NCBI GenBank assembly: GCA_029093145.1
Contig: GCA_029093145.1_4347.1
DNA length: 44,066 nucleotides
Strand: one strand, 5' to 3'
Source of the DNA: a phage
Positions 1 through 41,295 of the stretch are shown here, piece after piece; positions within the stretch are counted from its first letter, which is position 1, and each line of letters begins with the position of its first letter. Position numbers and translations under genes: made by a program. The notes below the pieces were generated by a model that was given only the letters and a program-made list of their open reading frames with translations, did not search any database and was not told the origin of the DNA.

Positions 1-9
1 AATGACTAG

Positions 10-38
10 TTGACTATTACCTACGACCCTATTATATT
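10..38 (+). promoter_or_regulatory. sigma70-like promoter TTGACT-N17-TATATT upstream of first early gene
   Basis: TTGACT at 10-15, 17-nt spacer, TATATT at 33-38; SD GGAG then ATG at 72. Confidence 0.45.
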
Positions 39-7242: not shown

Positions 7243-7270
7243 AAGGCCCCATTAAGGGGCCTTAGTTTTC
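7243..7270. terminator. terminator hairpin
   Basis: AAGGCCCC-ATTA-AGGGGCCTT then AGTTTTC. Confidence 0.6.
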
Positions 7271-7472
7271 AACGGAATCTTGTGTTTAAATCCTGCTCAT
7301 GGACAACCCTCAGAACAGTGTCATAATCCTCGTATCTTCCAGGTTCAAATATATCTAATGCCTTGTAAGCAGACATTGCGTCAGGGAAAACCTGCAGAAC
7401 CTTTTTAACCCGGCACAAGTCACCGTCGAACTCTTCATCGAACTCTTGAACTACTTCGCAAATTGCATACAT
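7269..7472 (-). CDS. small acidic hypothetical protein (67 aa), antisense moron
   Basis: Own promoter (7500-7528) and SD AGGAGGTGA; D/E-rich. Confidence 0.5.
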   Translation of the reverse strand: MYAICEVVQEFDEEFDGDLCRVKKVLQVFPDAMSAYKALDIFEPGRYEDYDTVLRVVHEQDLNTRFR

Positions 7473-7499
7473 TTTTCACCTCCTGTTTAAGTTAACTGA

Positions 7500-7528
7500 A
7501 TAGTACCCTATTATATTGGGGTGTGCAA
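7500..7528 (-). promoter_or_regulatory. class B promoter TTGCAC-N17-TACTAT with embedded AATAG-N4-CTATT dyad
   Basis: On minus strand TTGCACACCCCAATATAATAGGGTACTATTCA; near-identical copies at 16744-16772, 40040-40068, 41236-41264. Confidence 0.5.
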
Positions 7529-7580
7529 ACTATTTATTTACGTATTCCAGTTATTCCACCGAATTGTAAATGTTGGAATA

Positions 7581-7596
7581 AACTATTCGAATAGTT
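7581..7596. promoter_or_regulatory. perfect 16-bp palindrome AACTATTCGAATAGTT
   Basis: Self-complementary; half-site ACTATTC matches the promoter-associated motif. Confidence 0.4.
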
Positions 7597-7800
7597 GACT
7601 TTTCACTAAAAATATGATAAGCTCCACCTGAGCTTGTGAAGTATGAACAAGCGACCGCGGCGCGGGCAGGTAACGGAGCGGGACGTAAGTCCTGAGTGTA
7701 GTTACGCTGACGCGTTCGGAAGGGCCATACTCTATTGCTTGTGTAAAAAGTAACTGGTTTACTGAGATTACGCCGTTTCTATGTTTAAATGATAAGGACT

Positions 7801-16692: not shown

Positions 16693-16743
16693 AACATAAC
16701 TCCTGATTTGAGATAACATCGTTGGTGTAAGTGAATAGTACGC

Positions 16744-16772
16744 TATTATATTGGGGAGTGCAAGTAGTGTGC
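16744..16772 (-). promoter_or_regulatory. class B promoter TTGCAC-N17-TACTAT driving the accessory operon
   Basis: Minus strand TTGCACTCCCCAATATAATAGCGTACTATTCAC; dyad AATAG-N4-CTATT at 16743-16756. Confidence 0.5.
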
Positions 16773-16870
16773 TAGAATAATTTTGCGCCTAGTGTCGCAC
16801 ACGAAAAGCGGGTGGTTCCCGTCTGGCGCATTTCCTTTAACCAGTAACCTCTTAACCAAAGGATTAAAGA

Positions 16871-20835: not shown

Positions 20836-21122
20836 GTTCGCGGCAAAATAGGGTTATCTTACTAAACGCACCTGTATACCCCGCACCATCGTCCAACAAC
20901 TCGTATTTACCGCCGTGGTTGGCTAAATCAGCTAATATCCTCTCGCGGCGCTCAGGCTATAGTATTTTCCGGCACATAATCAACCTCAATAAAGAGTATT
21001 AACTAGTATACTATTCAACCATGGGGCCCGGGTCAACATAAACGTCGTGATGTTACGCCCCCTCCATGGTAGCATTGGCTTAAAGTTATTGCGATGGTAT
21101 CCAATCTACCGGGGTTTAAATA

Positions 21123-30292: not shown

Positions 30293-30580
30293 CTAACTAT
30301 AATAGCTAGCTATTAGGGTGTCAACCTGTTTGAACGAACCAACTACAAAAACATTTGCACCACGCTTACGCATCCGCTCGTGCTCTCGTAACTGGTGCGG
30401 GTCAGGCTTCGTGCTTTCGTCTTTCTTCACCTCGACGAACCAGACGATGCCGCCAGGGAGAATTACCAGCAGGTCGGGAGCGCCGGAACGTCCTTCGTAG
30501 GAGAGCTTGCGAACGAGGCCACCGAGGGCCTCGAATCGCTCTTTTGCGTATTTCTGTATGCGCCCCTCAGGCGTACTCAT
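30293..30580 (-). CDS. VRR-NUC domain nuclease
   Basis: PD-(D/E)xK-type motifs APDLLV ... FVEVKK; SD GAGGGGTG. Confidence 0.75.
   Translation of the reverse strand: MSTPEGRIQKYAKERFEALGGLVRKLSYEGRSGAPDLLVILPGGIVWFVEVKKDESTKPDPHQLREHERMRKRGANVFVVGSFKQVDTLIASYYS
30296..30324 (-). promoter_or_regulatory. class A promoter TTGACA-N17-TATAGT with AATAG-N4-CTATT dyad in spacer
   Basis: Minus strand TTGACACCCTAATAGCTAGCTATTATAGT; dyad 30301-30314. Confidence 0.5.
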
Positions 30581-33709: not shown

Positions 33710-33738
33710 ACTATAATAGCTAACTATTCAGGTGTCAA
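33710..33738 (-). promoter_or_regulatory. class A promoter TTGACA-N17-TATAGT with AATAG-N4-CTATT dyad
   Basis: Minus strand TTGACACCTGAATAGTTAGCTATTATAGT; dyad 33715-33728. Confidence 0.5.
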
Positions 33739-33927: not shown

Positions 33928-35165
33928 TCTAAATCCTCCTCTGTAACTTGATTCCACTCAGGACGTTTGTCATCCGCCGTTGCGACGCATGGCGCACCGG
34001 GCTTACGGGTAATGAAATCTTTCAGTTCTTCTTCCGGTACAATTTTAACCGCTTCGGTCGGTGTCATAAGAACTACCTTTTGCAGCATAGTACCGTACTT
34101 CTCGAATACTGCATCGGTATCTTTCCACGCACGATTACCCGGGCGTCCTTCAACCAGTTTATACCCCGGCACTTTCTTACCGGAATGTAACGCAGCAGCC
34201 ATAGCTTTCTCAACCTTGTCGATGTGCTGGCGCAACAACGGCAACTTCTCATACTCAGCTACGAGTTGCTCTGGCGTAAGCTCAAGTGCAAAGTCGTCCT
34301 CCAGTTCTTCCGCCAGCCCCGCGTTAACGGTTTTTGTACGCGCTGCGCATTGTTCAGAGAACCGACACCACTGACAACCATCTACCGACGGCTTGAAGTC
34401 CGACGCTTTCAGGTTCTTTTTACCCCGGAAATAGGCATCAAGAGCCAACAGCGCCCGTTTCTGTGCAAACTTAGCGAACAGTTCCAGACCTTCAACCGAG
34501 ATGTCCCACTCTGTCGCGCCCCCAGCGTAAGGCTGGAAGATGACCAGACGAACGGTTGTTATGTTATAACGTCTCTTGAGTCGACGATAAACACCGAGAG
34601 CGTAAAGCATAAGCTGCTTGTTTTCTTTCGCTTCGACGCGATGCCGCCCGGTTTTCAGGTCGCCGATAATGAGCATGTGCTCGTCGGTGTTTGCCAGTTC
34701 CTGGACAGCAACGAGGTCAGCGGTTCCGAACGTCTCAACGCCTTCATACCCCGGATGCAATACCTCAGTAAGATTGACACGCATTTCCAGCTTGGCGTAA
34801 GTCGCTACGTCTATAATCGCTTTGCAGTAGTCGGTGTACTTGCGCACCTGCTCAATCATGTCCGCCGTAATCAGTACCGCGCCTTTCATCGGGCTGATTA
34901 GCGCCTTAATCTGACCTTTGCCTTCATCCAGTACGTAAGCACCGACTTCACGCTCTAGCGGCAACGCAGTTCCGCGGATATAGGCGTTGAGATGGACCTC
35001 AGCTATTGTGTGCATAGCTGTGCCTAATACAGCAGCTTTACCTGACGTGTTAGGAATATCTTTTTCACAGGCCAGCGATGCGGCGCAACTTAGCCACTTT
35101 TTAGCCCCAGACGGCGACAGCAGGGCGTGCACATCGTTACTGCCGCCACGTTCTTTTAGTTTCAT
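33924..35165 (-). CDS. PD-(D/E)xK nuclease, Cas4/RecB-like (DUF2800-like) with Cys cluster
   Basis: Motifs GTADLVAV, IIGDLKTG, QLMLYA; cysteines CAASLAC and CQWCRFSEQC; SD GGGTGGGAG before ATG 35165 (track ORF opens at 35186). Confidence 0.7.
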   Translation of the reverse strand: MKLKERGGSNDVHALLSPSGAKKWLSCAASLACEKDIPNTSGKAAVLGTAMHTIAEVHLNAYIRGTALPLEREVGAYVLDEGKGQIKALISPMKGAVLITADMIEQVRKYTDYCKAIIDVATYAKLEMRVNLTEVLHPGYEGVETFGTADLVAVQELANTDEHMLIIGDLKTGRHRVEAKENKQLMLYALGVYRRLKRRYNITTVRLVIFQPYAGGATEWDISVEGLELFAKFAQKRALLALDAYFRGKKNLKASDFKPSVDGCQWCRFSEQCAARTKTVNAGLAEELEDDFALELTPEQLVAEYEKLPLLRQHIDKVEKAMAAALHSGKKVPGYKLVEGRPGNRAWKDTDAVFEKYGTMLQKVVLMTPTEAVKIVPEEELKDFITRKPGAPCVATADDKRPEWNQVTEEDLE

Positions 35166-35769: not shown

Positions 35770-36270
35770 TTATTCTTCTTCGAAATACTTGTTCTTGATT
35801 GCTGTCAAGCGTTCCAGGTACTCAACCAGGTCTTCGTCTTTAATCGCGGCAATCTTCATCTTCTTACCTGTGAACTCTTCCAGCAGTTCATCAGAATCAT
35901 CGCACGCGGCATCGCTAGGACCTTCATTAATTGCATCGTCGATGGCCTGAATCTGGTCACGCAGAGACTTATAGTCTACTTCTTCTTTCTCTTCTTCCGG
36001 CTCTGGCGTCGTTTCCTCTACTTTAGCTTTACGCGGCTTGCGTTTTGGCTTCTCTTCTTCTGCCGGTTTAGTGTCAACGATGTCTTCACCTTCTACCGGG
36101 ATTTCTTTTGTTGCTTCTTCAGCACACTCAGCTACCGCTTCTTTGGTGTACGATACCGTCTCTACTTCCAGCGGCGCGGCAACCTGAACAACTTGTTTCG
36201 CACTGTTCGCGGCAATCAGTTCATGTGCAACTACGAAACGTTCCAGTAATACTAAGAATTTCTCTAACAT
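35770..36270 (-). CDS. highly acidic hypothetical protein (166 aa)
   Basis: SD AGGAGAA; long E/D-rich tracts (EPEEEKEEVD, DDSDELLEE). Confidence 0.5.
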   Translation of the reverse strand: MLEKFLVLLERFVVAHELIAANSAKQVVQVAAPLEVETVSYTKEAVAECAEEATKEIPVEGEDIVDTKPAEEEKPKRKPRKAKVEETTPEPEEEKEEVDYKSLRDQIQAIDDAINEGPSDAACDDSDELLEEFTGKKMKIAAIKDEDLVEYLERLTAIKNKYFEEE

Positions 36271-36294
36271 TATTTATTCTCCTGTTTATTTGGG

Positions 36295-36522
36295 TTACTC
36301 GCCGTCGCCTTCTGTAAGGCTATCGTCTATTAATTCAAATCTACCGTTTGAGTGTTGAATAGCTTCTTGCCCGCAATGGTCACAGACAACAAGTTTATCG
36401 AACCCATCAAACTCATCCCCTACTACGCAAGAAAGTACAAATTTATGTTTTGTGCACACTTCTTGCGGAGCGCCGAAAATTGCTCGAAAACCTTTAGCTA
36501 TGGCCCCAGTGATTGTGTTCAT
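36295..36522 (-). CDS. small Cys-containing (zinc-finger-like) protein
   Basis: SD GAGAGGGG; CTKH ... CDHCG cysteine pattern; first gene after class A promoter. Confidence 0.5.
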   Translation of the reverse strand: MNTITGAIAKGFRAIFGAPQEVCTKHKFVLSCVVGDEFDGFDKLVVCDHCGQEAIQHSNGRFELIDDSLTEGDGE

Positions 36523-36550
36523 ATCTGCCCCTCTCGTTTGGTATGGGCTA

Positions 36551-36579
36551 ACTATAATAGCGAACTATTCACATGTCAA
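36551..36579 (-). promoter_or_regulatory. class A promoter TTGACA-N17-TATAGT with AATAG-N4-CTATT dyad
   Basis: Minus strand TTGACATGTGAATAGTTCGCTATTATAGT; dyad 36556-36569. Confidence 0.5.
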
Positions 36580-36643
36580 TGGGCTTTTCTAAAATAATTA
36601 ATATGGTACTATTCACATATCAACTGACTAAGGAGTAACTGAC

Positions 36644-36859
36644 ATGCAACCATCTGAACTAGGCACCCGTGTAGAACAACGCCGTAAAGAACTCGGCATC
36701 TCCCAGCGCCGTTTGGCGGCCCTGACCGGCGTTTCCCAGGGCGCGATTAACCAACTGGCACTTGGAGTAACTCAGGACGTCCGCCCGGCAACGCTGTTCA
36801 AACTGGCGGAAGTTCTGGAAGTAGACGCCAAGTGGCTGGCGTTAGGTGAAGGGGCTTAA
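36644..36859 (+). CDS. Cro/CI-type HTH (XRE family) transcriptional regulator
   Basis: ISQRRLAALTGVSQGAINQLALG helix-turn-helix; SD AAGGAG; divergent from replication operon. Confidence 0.85.
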   Translation: MQPSELGTRVEQRRKELGISQRRLAALTGVSQGAINQLALGVTQDVRPATLFKLAEVLEVDAKWLALGEGA

Positions 36860-36875
36860 AGCCCCTTTCTTTTTA
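36849..36875 (+). terminator. rho-independent terminator
   Basis: AAGGGGC-TTAAA-GCCCCTT followed by TCTTTTT. Confidence 0.6.
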
Positions 36876-36876
36876 C

Positions 36877-39144
36877 CTATTCCAAATCCTCCTCTGTCAC
36901 TGTCAACATTTCATTCGGTTCGTATATTGTCTTTGGAATCTTGTTATCAGTTATTCTGGTGTTCAGCCTGTAACGACCTGGGATTATCTGATTGTTTTCG
37001 TCAGTACCCGGAACAAGATACCCGGCCTCAACCATTTTCTTAATCTTCCCGCGTTCTATGGCTTCTTTGGAGTTAAACGCCTTTGCGTTTGGGTCTGACT
37101 GTGCGAGCTTATTCGCCGCGGCGACTGTGATGCCTTCGTTGCCGTTGTAGGTTCCTTCCGCCAGTTCAAACGCCGCGAGTATCGTGGCCTCCGAACTGTT
37201 GACGGCGTTCTCTACGGTTTTACGTACATTTTCTTTACCTTCTTTCGTCAACCCTTCTTCCCGCTCTTTCTCCTCGTCAGTTTTGAACGGCTCGAAACCC
37301 CACGGCATCAACACAAGCGCCTTGTGTGGTTCAGGCAGGTCCAGGTTTACGATTGTGCCGTATTCCTCTGTGCTACCCAGGAACTCAACCGCTCGGTATT
37401 CTTTAGGTGGCGGCGCTTCACGGAACTGTACCGACTCCAGCACCATGCCAACCGTCTTCTGCTGAGGCCCGTGCTTGAATTTCGAGTGATATACGTTTAT
37501 CTGACGGTCGGTTGCACGTTCGATTGTCAGTTCCACATCAACACCCGCATACAGCGCCCCACTGCCGCGTGCTTTCTTTCCACCCTTCGGCGTATGGTGG
37601 ACAACGCCTACTGCGGCTTTAGTTGCATCGCGTACTTCTTTCAGAATGGCGATAACTTTACCCATGCCGATTGCTGTTGATGAACTGTTCTCGTCGAACT
37701 TATCAATCGTCAGTGCCAGGGTCTGGTTAAGGGTGTCGAACGCAACCATGCCAATTGGCTCGTCGCCAGCAGTTTCGCGCATTAACTTAATCAGGCTTTT
37801 AAGTTTGCCGACTTCGCCCATATCGATGACATGTACATAATCTTTACCTTCCTCGCCGTATTTAGCCGCGAGCGCATCAATACGTGTACGTGTGGCTGCC
37901 CCACCCTCGCCGTCGATATAGAAATGGTGACAACGCTGGGTGTCAGCCCCTGCAAACCGGTATCCGGCGGCGCTCAGGTACATCATCCCCAGCGTATAGA
38001 ATGATTTGTACGTGCCCGATCCTCCGACGATACCCCAGATACAATCCGACGGCATGTACCCCTCAACGACGAAATCAGCCTTTACCGGCTCCGGTAACTC
38101 GTCCTCCTCTGAGTCCTCGTCGTCTTCCAGGTCGTCGAGGCTGCATGAGACAGATTCACGCGCCCCCCAACCGATGGCCTCTGCGACTTCACTGAACGGC
38201 AGCCCGGTCGCATCGCACGCGTACTTCCACACCTCTTTCGGTGACAGGCCTTCTGTCGCCGTAATGTCTGTGTCGTGAATCATGGTTACGTTTGGCGCTT
38301 CATACCCCTCGCGCGGGAAGCACAGCAGGAAGTCGTCCGGGCGCGGTGTCGGGTCGCTGTAGTTTTCGGCATGTTCCGGTGTGGCTGGCATCTTAAGGCC
38401 GCGCGGCGTCATGACGCCGCCGTACTCAAACGCCAGTGCTTCAAACGCGTCTGTAAACGCGGTGCGCAGTTCTTCCGGTATCTGGTAATCCGATGCGCTG
38501 CTAACGTCAACGGCTGGGATGCCTTCCAGTAACTCGTTCGGGTCGATCAGGTCGTTGCGGCGCGACCAGATAACGGTAGCGCCGACCGGCGGCAGGTACA
38601 TCGGCTGCGACAGAGTGAACCCGCTGCGGTCCGCACCCATGCCTTTGAAGAAGTGCTCCAGCAACCCATGACGAACACGGATGATATCACCACCCTCAAC
38701 TGGGCGGGCCAGCGGCATGACGACGCGAAAGCGAGGCGACTCATCGGTATGTGATGCCGTGGTGTAGAGACACATCGCCCGGCAGCTGCGATTAACCAGG
38801 CGCACCGCTTCCTGGTACTCTTCCGGTGTTGCACTGTCGAAGTCCAGATACGCCAGCGACGATTTGCTCACAGACGCGTCACAGCGATAGAAGAAGCCTT
38901 TACGCGCTTGTTTAAAGCCACCGGTTTCCGGGTCTTTTACGGTGCTGTGTGTAGAATCGCACGCGGCCGTGATATAACCGGGCGCAGTCTTGGGGTTAAT
39001 CCCGTCACGAACGGCATCGAGCGGCTGGATTAACTCTTTCAGGTCGTCCAGTGTTGCCGTGTGTGCGGTTCTGACATTTATATCCTTTTTCCCCGCCCGC
39101 GCGTTGCGGCGTGACCACGAGTAGGATAAAATTACATCGGACAT
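36877..39144 (-). CDS. primase-helicase (AEP-type primase-polymerase domain fused to RecA-like ATPase)
   Basis: N-terminal YLDFD and TTASHTD motifs (AEP-like); central Walker A GGSGTYKS and Walker B GMVAFDTL. Confidence 0.6.
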   Translation of the reverse strand: MSDVILSYSWSRRNARAGKKDINVRTAHTATLDDLKELIQPLDAVRDGINPKTAPGYITAACDSTHSTVKDPETGGFKQARKGFFYRCDASVSKSSLAYLDFDSATPEEYQEAVRLVNRSCRAMCLYTTASHTDESPRFRVVMPLARPVEGGDIIRVRHGLLEHFFKGMGADRSGFTLSQPMYLPPVGATVIWSRRNDLIDPNELLEGIPAVDVSSASDYQIPEELRTAFTDAFEALAFEYGGVMTPRGLKMPATPEHAENYSDPTPRPDDFLLCFPREGYEAPNVTMIHDTDITATEGLSPKEVWKYACDATGLPFSEVAEAIGWGARESVSCSLDDLEDDEDSEEDELPEPVKADFVVEGYMPSDCIWGIVGGSGTYKSFYTLGMMYLSAAGYRFAGADTQRCHHFYIDGEGGAATRTRIDALAAKYGEEGKDYVHVIDMGEVGKLKSLIKLMRETAGDEPIGMVAFDTLNQTLALTIDKFDENSSSTAIGMGKVIAILKEVRDATKAAVGVVHHTPKGGKKARGSGALYAGVDVELTIERATDRQINVYHSKFKHGPQQKTVGMVLESVQFREAPPPKEYRAVEFLGSTEEYGTIVNLDLPEPHKALVLMPWGFEPFKTDEEKEREEGLTKEGKENVRKTVENAVNSSEATILAAFELAEGTYNGNEGITVAAANKLAQSDPNAKAFNSKEAIERGKIKKMVEAGYLVPGTDENNQIIPGRYRLNTRITDNKIPKTIYEPNEMLTVTEEDLE

Positions 39145-39202
39145 GTTGTATTTCCTTCAGCAAGTAATTTGGCCTCGGCGTTCACCGCGTCGGGGCTTTC
39201 TT

Positions 39203-39436
39203 TTATTCCAGGTCTTCTAAAGTAGCGGTCATTCCGCGAACTTCAGCAAAGGCACTATATTTCCCGCCAACATTTTTCACGACGCCAGATTTAACCAGCA
39301 CTTTTAACGACCCTTCAATAATGACGGAACTATAGTACTTAAAATAACTGCGGCGCAAGTCGATAACGCTGCACGACCCTTTTTTACGTGTTAATGAAAC
39401 GACTGCCGTAAATACGCGTGACTGGAACTCGGTCAT
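39203..39436 (-). CDS. hypothetical protein (77 aa)
   Basis: Overlaps HTH gene start by 4 nt; shares C-terminal LEDLE tail with two replication proteins. Confidence 0.45.
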   Translation of the reverse strand: MTEFQSRVFTAVVSLTRKKGSCSVIDLRRSYFKYYSSVIIEGSLKVLVKSGVVKNVGGKYSAFAEVRGMTATLEDLE

Positions 39437-39630
39437 TTTACATTCTCCTTAATCCACGCTTCCACTTTCTCCCGGTCAAACGTACCTGGCTGACGGCGGC
39501 CCATAATGCGGACACAACAATCCGGGAACTTCCCACTCTTTAACCAGTTATTCAGCGTGCGACGGGTAACCCCGATACGCTCAGCTACCTCATTCTGTGT
39601 CATCCTCAAGCCCCCATTATCAGTTAACAA
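39433..39630 (-). CDS. AlpA/excisionase-like HTH DNA-binding protein
   Basis: MTQNEVAERIGVTRRTLNNWLKSGKFP helix-turn-helix. Confidence 0.6.
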   Translation of the reverse strand: MLTDNGGLRMTQNEVAERIGVTRRTLNNWLKSGKFPDCCVRIMGRRQPGTFDREKVEAWIKENVK

Positions 39631-40039: not shown

Positions 40040-40068
40040 TTGCACACCCCAACATAATAGGTTACTAT
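40040..40068 (+). promoter_or_regulatory. class B promoter TTGCAC-N17-TACTAT
   Basis: TTGCACACCCCAACATAATAGGTTACTATTCA; dyad 40056-40069. Confidence 0.5.
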
Positions 40069-40102
40069 TCACTTATCGAAACGAGACATAAGGAATTTAG
40101 AA

Positions 40103-41235: not shown

Positions 41236-41264
41236 TTGCACACTAAGATAGAATAGGCTACTAT
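41236..41264 (+). promoter_or_regulatory. class B promoter TTGCAC-N17-TACTAT
   Basis: TTGCACACTAAGATAGAATAGGCTACTATTCA; dyad 41252-41265. Confidence 0.5.
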
Positions 41265-41295
41265 TCATTTACACGAACGAGAGGAGAGACAGAAG

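Follow-up and report, generated by a model that had tools for sequence, protein, structure and literature searches.

The divergent control region

The window analyzed here (contig GCA_029093145.1_4347.1, 44,066 bp) is a Kagunavirus (Guernseyvirinae) genome of a virulent Escherichia coli phage, has about one genome length and shares about 98% identity with the BASEL phages Bas73 and Bas70. We investigated its intergenic region 36523–36643 (121 bp), which lies between a minus-strand gene for a 75-aa protein and a plus-strand gene for a 71-aa helix-turn-helix (HTH) protein, and which carries two palindromic dyads, hereafter O1 and O2, that the HTH protein may bind (Table 1). A preliminary description had portrayed the region as a compact genetic switch around the only Cro/CI-type gene, divergent from a replication operon, and all the elements that it listed were present as described. 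"Replication operon" proved a fair term: leftward of the region, 75-aa and 166-aa proteins of unknown function and small open reading frames (ORFs) are followed by genes for a DUF2800/PD-(D/E)XK exonuclease, an Enc34-type single-stranded DNA-binding protein (SSB), a DNA polymerase and others. On the other side, the helicase-primase gene (36877–39144, minus strand) is convergent with the HTH gene. Positions 36200–36900 matched 153 phage records, all of them Kagunavirus or other Guernseyvirinae siphophages, with Escherichia phages GertrudWoker_Bas73 (98.7%) and MarieHeimVoegtlin_Bas70 (97.7%) as the best matches. For comparisons between lineages we used 80 loci that encode relatives of the 71-aa protein (numbered with the prefix L), a collection that went through the HTH gene.

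The leftward promoter (PL), earlier called strong, has near-consensus hexamers, both invariant in 36 distinct Kagunavirus versions of the region. Rightward, the TACTAT –10 element with a weak –35 was likewise present, plus a TG extension; the –35 (CTTTTC) is poor enough to be unusable, and Jerseyvirus SETP3 has TTGCAC-17-TACTAT at this position. Transcription would be predicted to start near 36544 for PL and near 36619 for the HTH promoter, so that the two promoters would stand back to back with starts about 75 bp apart. An alternative rightward candidate is less secure than the TACTAT promoter because relatives differ in its –35 tail and spacer length and L042 has lost its –10. The promoter scan as a whole returned four sites in 2 kb where 1.4 were expected. 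An Rfam search found no RNA family in the control region, and predicted structure in the 5′ leader of the HTH gene did not exceed that of shuffled sequences (z = +1.2).

O1 fills the spacer of PL and adjoins or overlaps the –35 of the alternative rightward candidate as well, and O2 overlaps the –10 of the HTH promoter. The earlier account of one perfect and one degenerate dyad about 44 bp apart holds for both sites and their distance, but "degenerate" does not mean decay here. The AATAT arm of O2 is invariant in all 38 Kagunavirus loci, and its G-to-T change makes the TG of the extended –10; since the invariant T supplies this TG, O2 is best described as a maintained compromise between promoter and operator. 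Each dyad, followed by ...CTATTCACATrTCAA, forms one copy of a 25-nt direct repeat, and none of 2000 shuffles reached its 21/25 identity (shuffle maximum 18/25). The palindrome ATTCACATGTCAAT (ACATGT; 36567–36580) was considered as a further operator and rejected, as relatives differ in this stretch, also by a 1-bp indel.

Upon comparison of the 36 Kagunavirus versions, both dyad arms were as invariant as the –35 and –10 hexamers. By contrast, the central 4 bp of O1 vary (CGAA, TGAA, CTAA, CTAG, CAAA, CGAG), the dyad flanks vary too, and the 4–5 nt between O1 and the –35 of PL differ in sequence and length. The same pattern of purifying selection was seen at six orthologous dyad sites in about 38 Kagunavirus loci, where 6 of 60 arm columns but 16 of 24 central columns are variable (Fisher p = 4e-7, a comparison mildly biased because the sites were chosen by motif similarity).

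Table 1. Coordinates of features in the control region and at the dyad-bearing promoters elsewhere in the window.
Feature	Position	Strand	Remarks
75-aa Cys-rich protein gene	36295–36522	–	First gene downstream of PL; ORF; phrog_32657, function unknown
Leftward promoter PL, class A	36551–36579	–	–35 TTGACA 36579–36574, 17-nt spacer, –10 TATAGT 36556–36551; 11/12
Putative operator O1	36556–36569		AATAGCGAACTATT; AATAG-CGAA-CTATT, perfect 5-bp arms
Alternative rightward promoter candidate	36568–36595	+	TTCACA-16-TAAAAT; 10/12
Possible second, weaker leftward promoter	36594–36623	–	TTGATA-18-AATTAT in repeat copy 2; 9/12; scan only
25-nt direct repeat, two copies	36555–36579 and 36599–36623		44 nt start to start; 21/25 identical (84%)
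Putative operator O2	36600–36613		AATATGGTACTATT; AATAT-GGTA-CTATT, one arm mismatch
HTH promoter core	36604–36612	+	Extended –10 TGgTACTAT; TG 36604–36605, TACTAT 36607–36612; read from sequence
Shine-Dalgarno AAGGAG of HTH gene	36630–36635	+	Conserved in Kagunavirus loci and SETP3
71-aa phage 434 Cro-like HTH_3 protein gene	36644–36859	+	Proposed dyad-binding repressor; Pfam, PDB, AF2 model
Intrinsic terminator of HTH gene	36848–36874	+	9-bp stem and T run; no minus-strand T run; terminator also annotated there in SETP3
Class C promoter TTGACT-17-TATATT	5–38	+	–35 in one-mismatch dyad ACTAGTTGACTATT (5–18); operon into terminase, structural genes
Class B promoter	7499–7528	–	Perfect dyad 7499–7512; drives 67-aa gene 7269–7472 (–)
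One-mismatch dyad over TTGACT –35 (class C)	7590–7603	+	AATAGTTGACTTTT; upstream of spanin, scaffold, capsid genes; also in Bas73
Class B promoter	16734–16763	–	Perfect dyad 16734–16747; operon of 72-aa ORF, exonuclease, polynucleotide kinase, dNMP kinase
One-mismatch dyad	21002–21015		ACTAGTATACTATT; between 272-aa minus-strand gene and tail genes
Class A promoter TTGACA-17-TATAGT	30296–30324	–	Perfect dyad 30301–30314; upstream of methyltransferase, helicase genes
Class A promoter TTGACA-17-TATAGT	33710–33738	–	Perfect dyad 33715–33728; upstream of SSB, DNA polymerase genes; conserved in 31 loci
Class B promoter TTGCAC-17-TACTAT	40040–40069	+	Perfect dyad 40056–40069 over –10; rightward small-gene operon from 40103
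Class B promoter	41236–41265	+	Perfect dyad 41252–41265; upstream of ORF 41296 and genes towards lysis cassette

A dyad shared by promoters throughout the genome

The first clue that the dyads are not confined to the control region came from a search with the repeat core, which gave near-copies at 33723 and 40064, both intergenic and both with the same combination of promoter and dyad. Scanning the whole window for AATAG-N4-CTATT returned seven perfect and four one-mismatch copies (Table 1), against expectations of 0.025 and 1.1, respectively, from 200 dinucleotide shuffles. An unbiased ranking of the inverted repeats (arms of 5 nt, gaps of 0–8) placed this dyad first, with terminator stems as the runners-up; the 16 two-mismatch matches, scattered through coding sequence, resemble noise.

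All eleven dyads overlap promoter-like sites, in at least three registers and in both orientations, and hardly any recognizable promoter of the phage is without a copy. In class A (minus strand, –35 starting at 36579, 33738 and 30324) the dyad fills the spacer of TTGACA-17-TATAGT, and these promoters are the best three sigma70 matches of the whole window. In class B, TTGCAC-17-TACTAT (40040+, 41236+, 16763– and 7528–), the dyad lies over the –10, and each promoter is followed by a Shine-Dalgarno sequence and a start codon at about 25–30 nt. The HTH promoter resembles class B from the –10 onward but lacks its –35, and its TACTATTCAC...AAGGA...ATG arrangement recurs at the four class B promoters, those with the TTGCAC –35. 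In class C, the TTGACT –35 sits inside one-mismatch dyads that head operons into the terminase and capsid genes. Because registers and orientations relative to the hexamers differ, the dyad appears to be an element in its own right and not a contact surface for sigma70.

Three further observations concern the surroundings of these promoters. An inverted half-site arrangement, ACTATTCGAATAGT, lies just upstream of the dyad before the capsid operon, giving three consecutive half-sites over 7580–7603. Three of the four class B promoters (40040–40055, 16748–16763 and 7513–7528) share a spacer, TTGCAC-nCCCCAAyAT, upstream of the dyad, which is conserved across relatives and could be the site of a second protein. 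Lastly, the intergenic stretch that adjoins the promoter at 16734–16763 and separates the minus-strand exonuclease operon from the tail-chaperone gene gave an Rfam match to the int-alpA RNA motif (16782–16846, plus strand; 36.6 bits against a gathering score of 35.8, E = 4.7e-4).

Among the inverted repeats of each Kagunavirus or Jerseyvirus locus examined, AATAG-N4-CTATT ranks first, alone or in a tie. SETP3 carries TAATAG-N4-CTATTA at the syntenic promoters, two of which are annotated as promoters in its record, including the counterpart of 33710–33738; the dyad at 5–18 is invariant in 24 loci, and its counterpart in SETP3 reads AATAGTTGACTAGT. For Kagunavirus and Jerseyvirus alike, the perfect copies stand at replication, rightward-early and minus-strand moron promoters, and the mismatched copies before the structural operons and the HTH gene. 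Seven loci, but not the window, have an additional perfect dyad, AATAGGTTACTATT, which follows tandem GGTGTAACAGG repeats about 4.1–4.7 kb downstream of the HTH gene.

More distant lineages have other dyads. Phages resembling phiEap-2, in which the HTH protein is 39% identical, have AATAN-N4-NTATT in four to five promoters, and L060 has AATAC-N4-GTATT. In L071 and L075 the HTH protein is about 48% identical to that of the window, with SQGYISHLRSG in place of SQGAINQLALG as the recognition helix, and the top inverted repeat is a different dyad, TTAGC-N2-GCTAA. Within 20 kb this dyad occurs three times without and twice with a single mismatch, at TTGAC(A/G/T) promoters whose spacer or –10 it occupies; the promoter of the lineage's own HTH gene is covered by a degenerate copy. 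As read from these sequences, at the level of lineages the architecture is kept while the dyad changes along with the regulator. Cornellvirus showed no enrichment of AATAG-type dyads. Cornellvirus FSL SP-031 (L004) has three copies of GAATAA-N-TTATTC (25438, 26069 and 26596), far from its HTH gene.

The HTH protein and competing readings

The 71-aa protein matches Pfam HTH_3 (PF01381) over residues 11–65 (E = 3.9e-13; 49.6 bits against a cut-off of 23). A six-frame family-profile search of the window found no second HTH_3-family ORF, which agrees with the statement that this is the only Cro/CI-type gene. The protein is of the true Cro type: its best PDB sequence matches are 434 Cro (1zug, 2cro, 3cro; 37–40% identity) and the DNA-binding domain of 434 repressor, both at E about 5e-6. 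An AlphaFold2 (AF2) model (pLDDT 77.5) has five helices (5–17, 21–28, 32–39, 48–57 and 62–66), and Foldseek placed it at template modelling (TM) scores of 0.74–0.77 to the 434 repressor DNA-binding domain, 434 Cro and P22 c2; SinR and restriction-modification-type C proteins are also similar (TM in the 0.7–0.8 range over all matches). The protein is a single domain, of the same length as 434 Cro, without the C-terminal dimerization/peptidase domain of CI-like repressors, and its helix 2–3 region is invariant among variants of 77–96% identity. The operators bound by 434 Cro dimers are 14 bp long (ACAA-N6-TTGT), and their outer A is contacted by the first glutamine of helix 3. By alignment this glutamine is conserved in the window protein, and the dyad has the same length and likewise starts with A.

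We noted that annotation of the gene is inconsistent. GenBank names for it include Cro, DicA repressor and transcriptional repressor, or the gene is omitted. The Bas73 record lacks it and has a 96-nt antisense ORF (34042–34137) annotated instead; the HTH gene of Bas73 lies at 34027–34239 and is 99% identical to that of the window.

Collectively, these results point to the 71-aa HTH_3 protein as a genome-wide, Cro-only repressor that acts through AATAG-N4-CTATT, a reading to which we give a probability of about 55%. A dimer would bind each dyad and occlude RNA polymerase, and repression is the suggested sign of regulation because the dyads sit over spacer, –10 or –35. The control region would then be one node of a regulon of about 11 sites, its two divergent promoters each overlapped by one 14-bp palindromic operator: O1 between the –35 and –10 of PL, and O2 on the –10 of the HTH promoter, or on the +1 region if the TAAAAT promoter were used. 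Operators would be graded, being perfect at replication, early and moron promoters and carrying one mismatch at the structural-operon promoters and the regulator's own. Repressor made early would bind perfect operators first and damp the replication, early and moron operons, whereas a later response would be expected of O2 and the class C sites, bringing late damping of the late operons and a weak autorepression. The earlier suggestion that the region times early/middle expression of replication genes is plausible. In line with an early onset, the HTH-domain gene is among the four earliest-peaking genes in coarse RNA-seq data of Kagunavirus K1B4 (PMC12645636). The expected outcome is negative feedback or dosage control, a Cro-style turn-down with a bias from early to late; a bistable switch would not be expected, because there is one regulator without an antagonist.

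Several points weigh against this proposal, besides the mild bias of the conservation test. Apart from feedback or shut-off, it is not obvious what a virulent phage would gain from a repressor at all its promoters, and the weakest copies of the dyad are those nearest the regulator gene (O2 in the window; O1 and O2 in SETP3). The HTH proteins of Kagunavirus and Jerseyvirus share only 48% identity and differ in their recognition helices (SQGAINQ and SQSLITH), yet go with the same dyad, whereas the equally diverged protein of L071 goes with a different one, so that there is no simple recognition code. All loci compared have the HTH gene, through which they were collected. Finally, our literature search found no binding, transcription-start, mutant or other functional study of the regulator or the motif for Guernseyvirinae. 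An attempt to match helix-3 residues to half-sites across lineages yielded no rule beyond an invariant S/T-Q-G/S start and AATA in most lineages, and L083, at first taken as a third HTH variant (40% identity, same dyad), was rejected as a frameshifted Jerseyvirus gene.

The dyads might instead be true operators of another factor, be it HTH_17, an unannotated small phage protein or a host regulator, which we consider unlikely. A second HTH protein, of the excisionase-like HTH_17 family, is encoded at 39433–39630, and its conservation is 85–97% between the two genera with a common AATAG-N4-CTATT dyad, Kagunavirus and Jerseyvirus, in which HTH_3 is only 48% identical; this, too, counts against the HTH_3 protein as binder. 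However attractive by conservation, the HTH_17 candidacy is weakened by L015 and L025, which have no HTH_17 and keep three to six perfect dyads. There, a 47-aa CxxC...CxxC protein and a 149-aa protein (L015, 3624–4209; L025, 12559–13144) take the place of the pair of HTH_17 and a 77-aa protein (about 39200–39630 in the window), and the slot upstream of the helicase-primase is thus a swappable module. Sister lineages without HTH_17 also keep promoter-embedded dyads, and excisionase-type proteins usually bind direct repeats as monomers. As for a host regulator, the E. coli trp operator core, ACTAG-TTAA-CTAGT, has the same 5-4-5 layout; three dyads have ACTAG arms, and ACTAGTTGACTATT at 5–18 is identical to that core at 12 of 14 positions. 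Nevertheless, the consensus arm is AATAG and not the CTAG core that TrpR requires, and a host factor is disfavored by the change of the dyad sequence among phage lineages whose hosts are related.

A second possibility is that no dedicated regulator exists and that the motif is the core of a duplicated promoter family, kept for promoter quality, for example through overlapping –10-like hexamers on both strands; we regard this as rather improbable. The same 20-mers were listed as conserved PHIRE "phage promoters" for fBC-Eco01 (PMC9825357; consensus tgAATAGTa-ccTATTat-T) and in Table S4 for VB_EcoS-Golestan, where both copies "before ORF48" are the two copies of this intergenic region, and part of each arm is indeed –10 sequence, as CTATT overlaps TACTAT or precedes TATAGT. 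But the dyad occurs in three registers to the –35 and –10, in one of them wholly inside the spacer of near-consensus promoters, a stretch in which sigma70 has no sequence requirement. Its arms are symmetric and invariant while its center is free, and a sister lineage puts an unrelated, GC-containing dyad at the same positions. A special promoter would call for a phage RNA polymerase, and none is annotated among the 81 genes of the near-identical Bas73 record (L086, PQ850603.1), whereas the sites bear ordinary sigma70-like hexamers.

We also revisited the view of the region as a compact genetic switch, which as a bistable, lambda-like decision between lysis and lysogeny, or a carrier state, we hold to be very improbable. 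What stands of it is that operators under selection overlap both promoters, in a Cro-like layout of divergent promoters with leftward recombination genes. In Cornellvirus (L004, 11449–13749) and phiEap-2 (L005, 20345–22648), moreover, the helicase-primase gene is co-directional and directly downstream of the HTH gene, a difference from the convergent order of Kagunavirus and Jerseyvirus that points to inversion of the segment. What does not stand is its self-contained nature. The dyad lies on about 11 promoters genome-wide, with two dyads 44 bp apart here and no tripartite OR, and a single Cro/CI-type gene has no CI partner. The earlier remark that integrase and a long CI are lacking agrees with the Bas73 record, among whose annotated genes we found no integrase, CI-type repressor or partition genes. 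No prophage copy was found among 5,426 complete RefSeq E. coli genomes (zero matches), and published isolates of these phages are called strictly lytic. One PLSDB "plasmid" speaks for a carrier state: CP088689.1 (44,086 bp), recorded for E. coli isolated from blood, is a whole Kagunavirus genome, with 94.7% identity over a 2-kb query, and may reflect a carrier state or contamination.

That the 25-nt repeats are origin iterons of the adjacent RepA-like helicase-primase can be all but dismissed: they are direct repeats with an AT-rich stretch between them and adjoin replication genes, but the motif occurs at 11 promoter sites genome-wide, the conserved unit is the palindrome and not the direct repeat, and the cumulative GC-skew minimum, which follows gene orientation, lies at about 39–40 kb and not at 36.5 kb.

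Turning to the gene leftward of the region, a Pfam search of the 75-aa protein gave no match, and we found no DNA-binding signature in either the 75-aa or the 166-aa protein. The 75-aa gene occurs in only a minority of Kagunaviruses, being absent in 590B, Bas71, Bas72, Bas74 and most IMG/VR relatives. Its product carries CxxxxxxxxC...CDHC, and megablast matches of 36295–36522 include Kayfunavirus (T7-like) podophages; the Golestan paper gives LM33_P1 gp4 as its best match. This distribution suggests a mobile early gene.

Relation to known regulators and implications

The closest parallel is 434 Cro, likewise a 71-aa, single-domain, five-helix HTH_3 protein with 14-bp dyad operators that begin with A and overlap promoter cores, if the window protein does bind its dyads as we propose. 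The half-sites differ, AATAG with a 4-bp center here and ACAA with a 6-bp center in 434, and the sites are unclustered here, one on each of about 11 promoters. As in 434 and other lambdoid phages, the HTH gene is divergent from an operon of recombination genes, and in the sister genera the helicase-primase follows it as O and P follow cro. Unlike those phages, this one has no CI partner, tripartite OR, PRM or integrase. The locus consequently falls outside the lambdoid genetic switches, as we found no divergent CI-type repressor, no shared tripartite operator and no temperate-cycle functions; by analogy, the module looks like a lambdoid early region that lost cI.

Global repressors with dispersed sites are familiar from temperate phages, in which they maintain lysogeny: P1 C1 has more than 14 operators, and gp71 of mycobacteriophage L5 acts at "stoperators". 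Those systems share with the regulon proposed here one small regulator, many conserved sites at or near promoters and genome-wide down-regulation. The many sites are found in the window (11, of which 7 are perfect), but prophage maintenance is not; the P1 and L5 sites are also asymmetric and their proteins are not 434 Cro-like, whereas here the sites are symmetric and the phage is virulent. C proteins such as C.AhdI and C.BclI are also small XRE-type HTH proteins of similar fold (TM about 0.73), with paired unequal dyads upstream of their own gene that time expression. They act only at their own operon, where they activate and repress, whereas the sites here are genome-wide and their positions imply repression only. 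The PHIRE studies of fBC-Eco01 and Golestan had recovered the same sequences, at seven sites per genome, but treated them as promoters, in fBC-Eco01 assigned to a phage RNA polymerase, an enzyme missing from the annotation of these genomes; the palindrome, its variable register to the –35 and –10 and the link to the HTH gene were not noted there. The proposed system is thus a Cro-type repressor and operator of a familiar kind, and its genome-wide, Cro-only deployment in a virulent phage would be unusual.

A bolder extension, which we offer tentatively and think doubtful as a whole, is that the entire transcription programme of Guernseyvirinae-type phages runs through one Cro-only regulon, with a lineage-specific 14-bp or 12-bp palindrome on every promoter and operator strength tuned for the early-to-late transition and for copy-number feedback. 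Diverged pairs (AATAG-N4-CTATT, AATAC-N4-GTATT and TTAGC-N2-GCTAA) might then serve as "immunity specificities" that silence co-infecting or superinfecting relatives.

Kagunaviruses and Jerseyviruses are common therapy and biocontrol phages, are part of the BASEL reference collection and provide small chassis for synthetic biology. Were the motif only a promoter family, its description would be routine annotation. If, however, every promoter is gated by one Cro-like protein, this would account for the finding of a "repressor" in strictly lytic phages, a point that matters for safety assessments that flag repressors as markers of lysogeny. The 11 short operators and one 71-aa protein would also offer an engineering handle on the timing of expression, and the sister lineages would provide a compact natural case of regulator–operator co-evolution.

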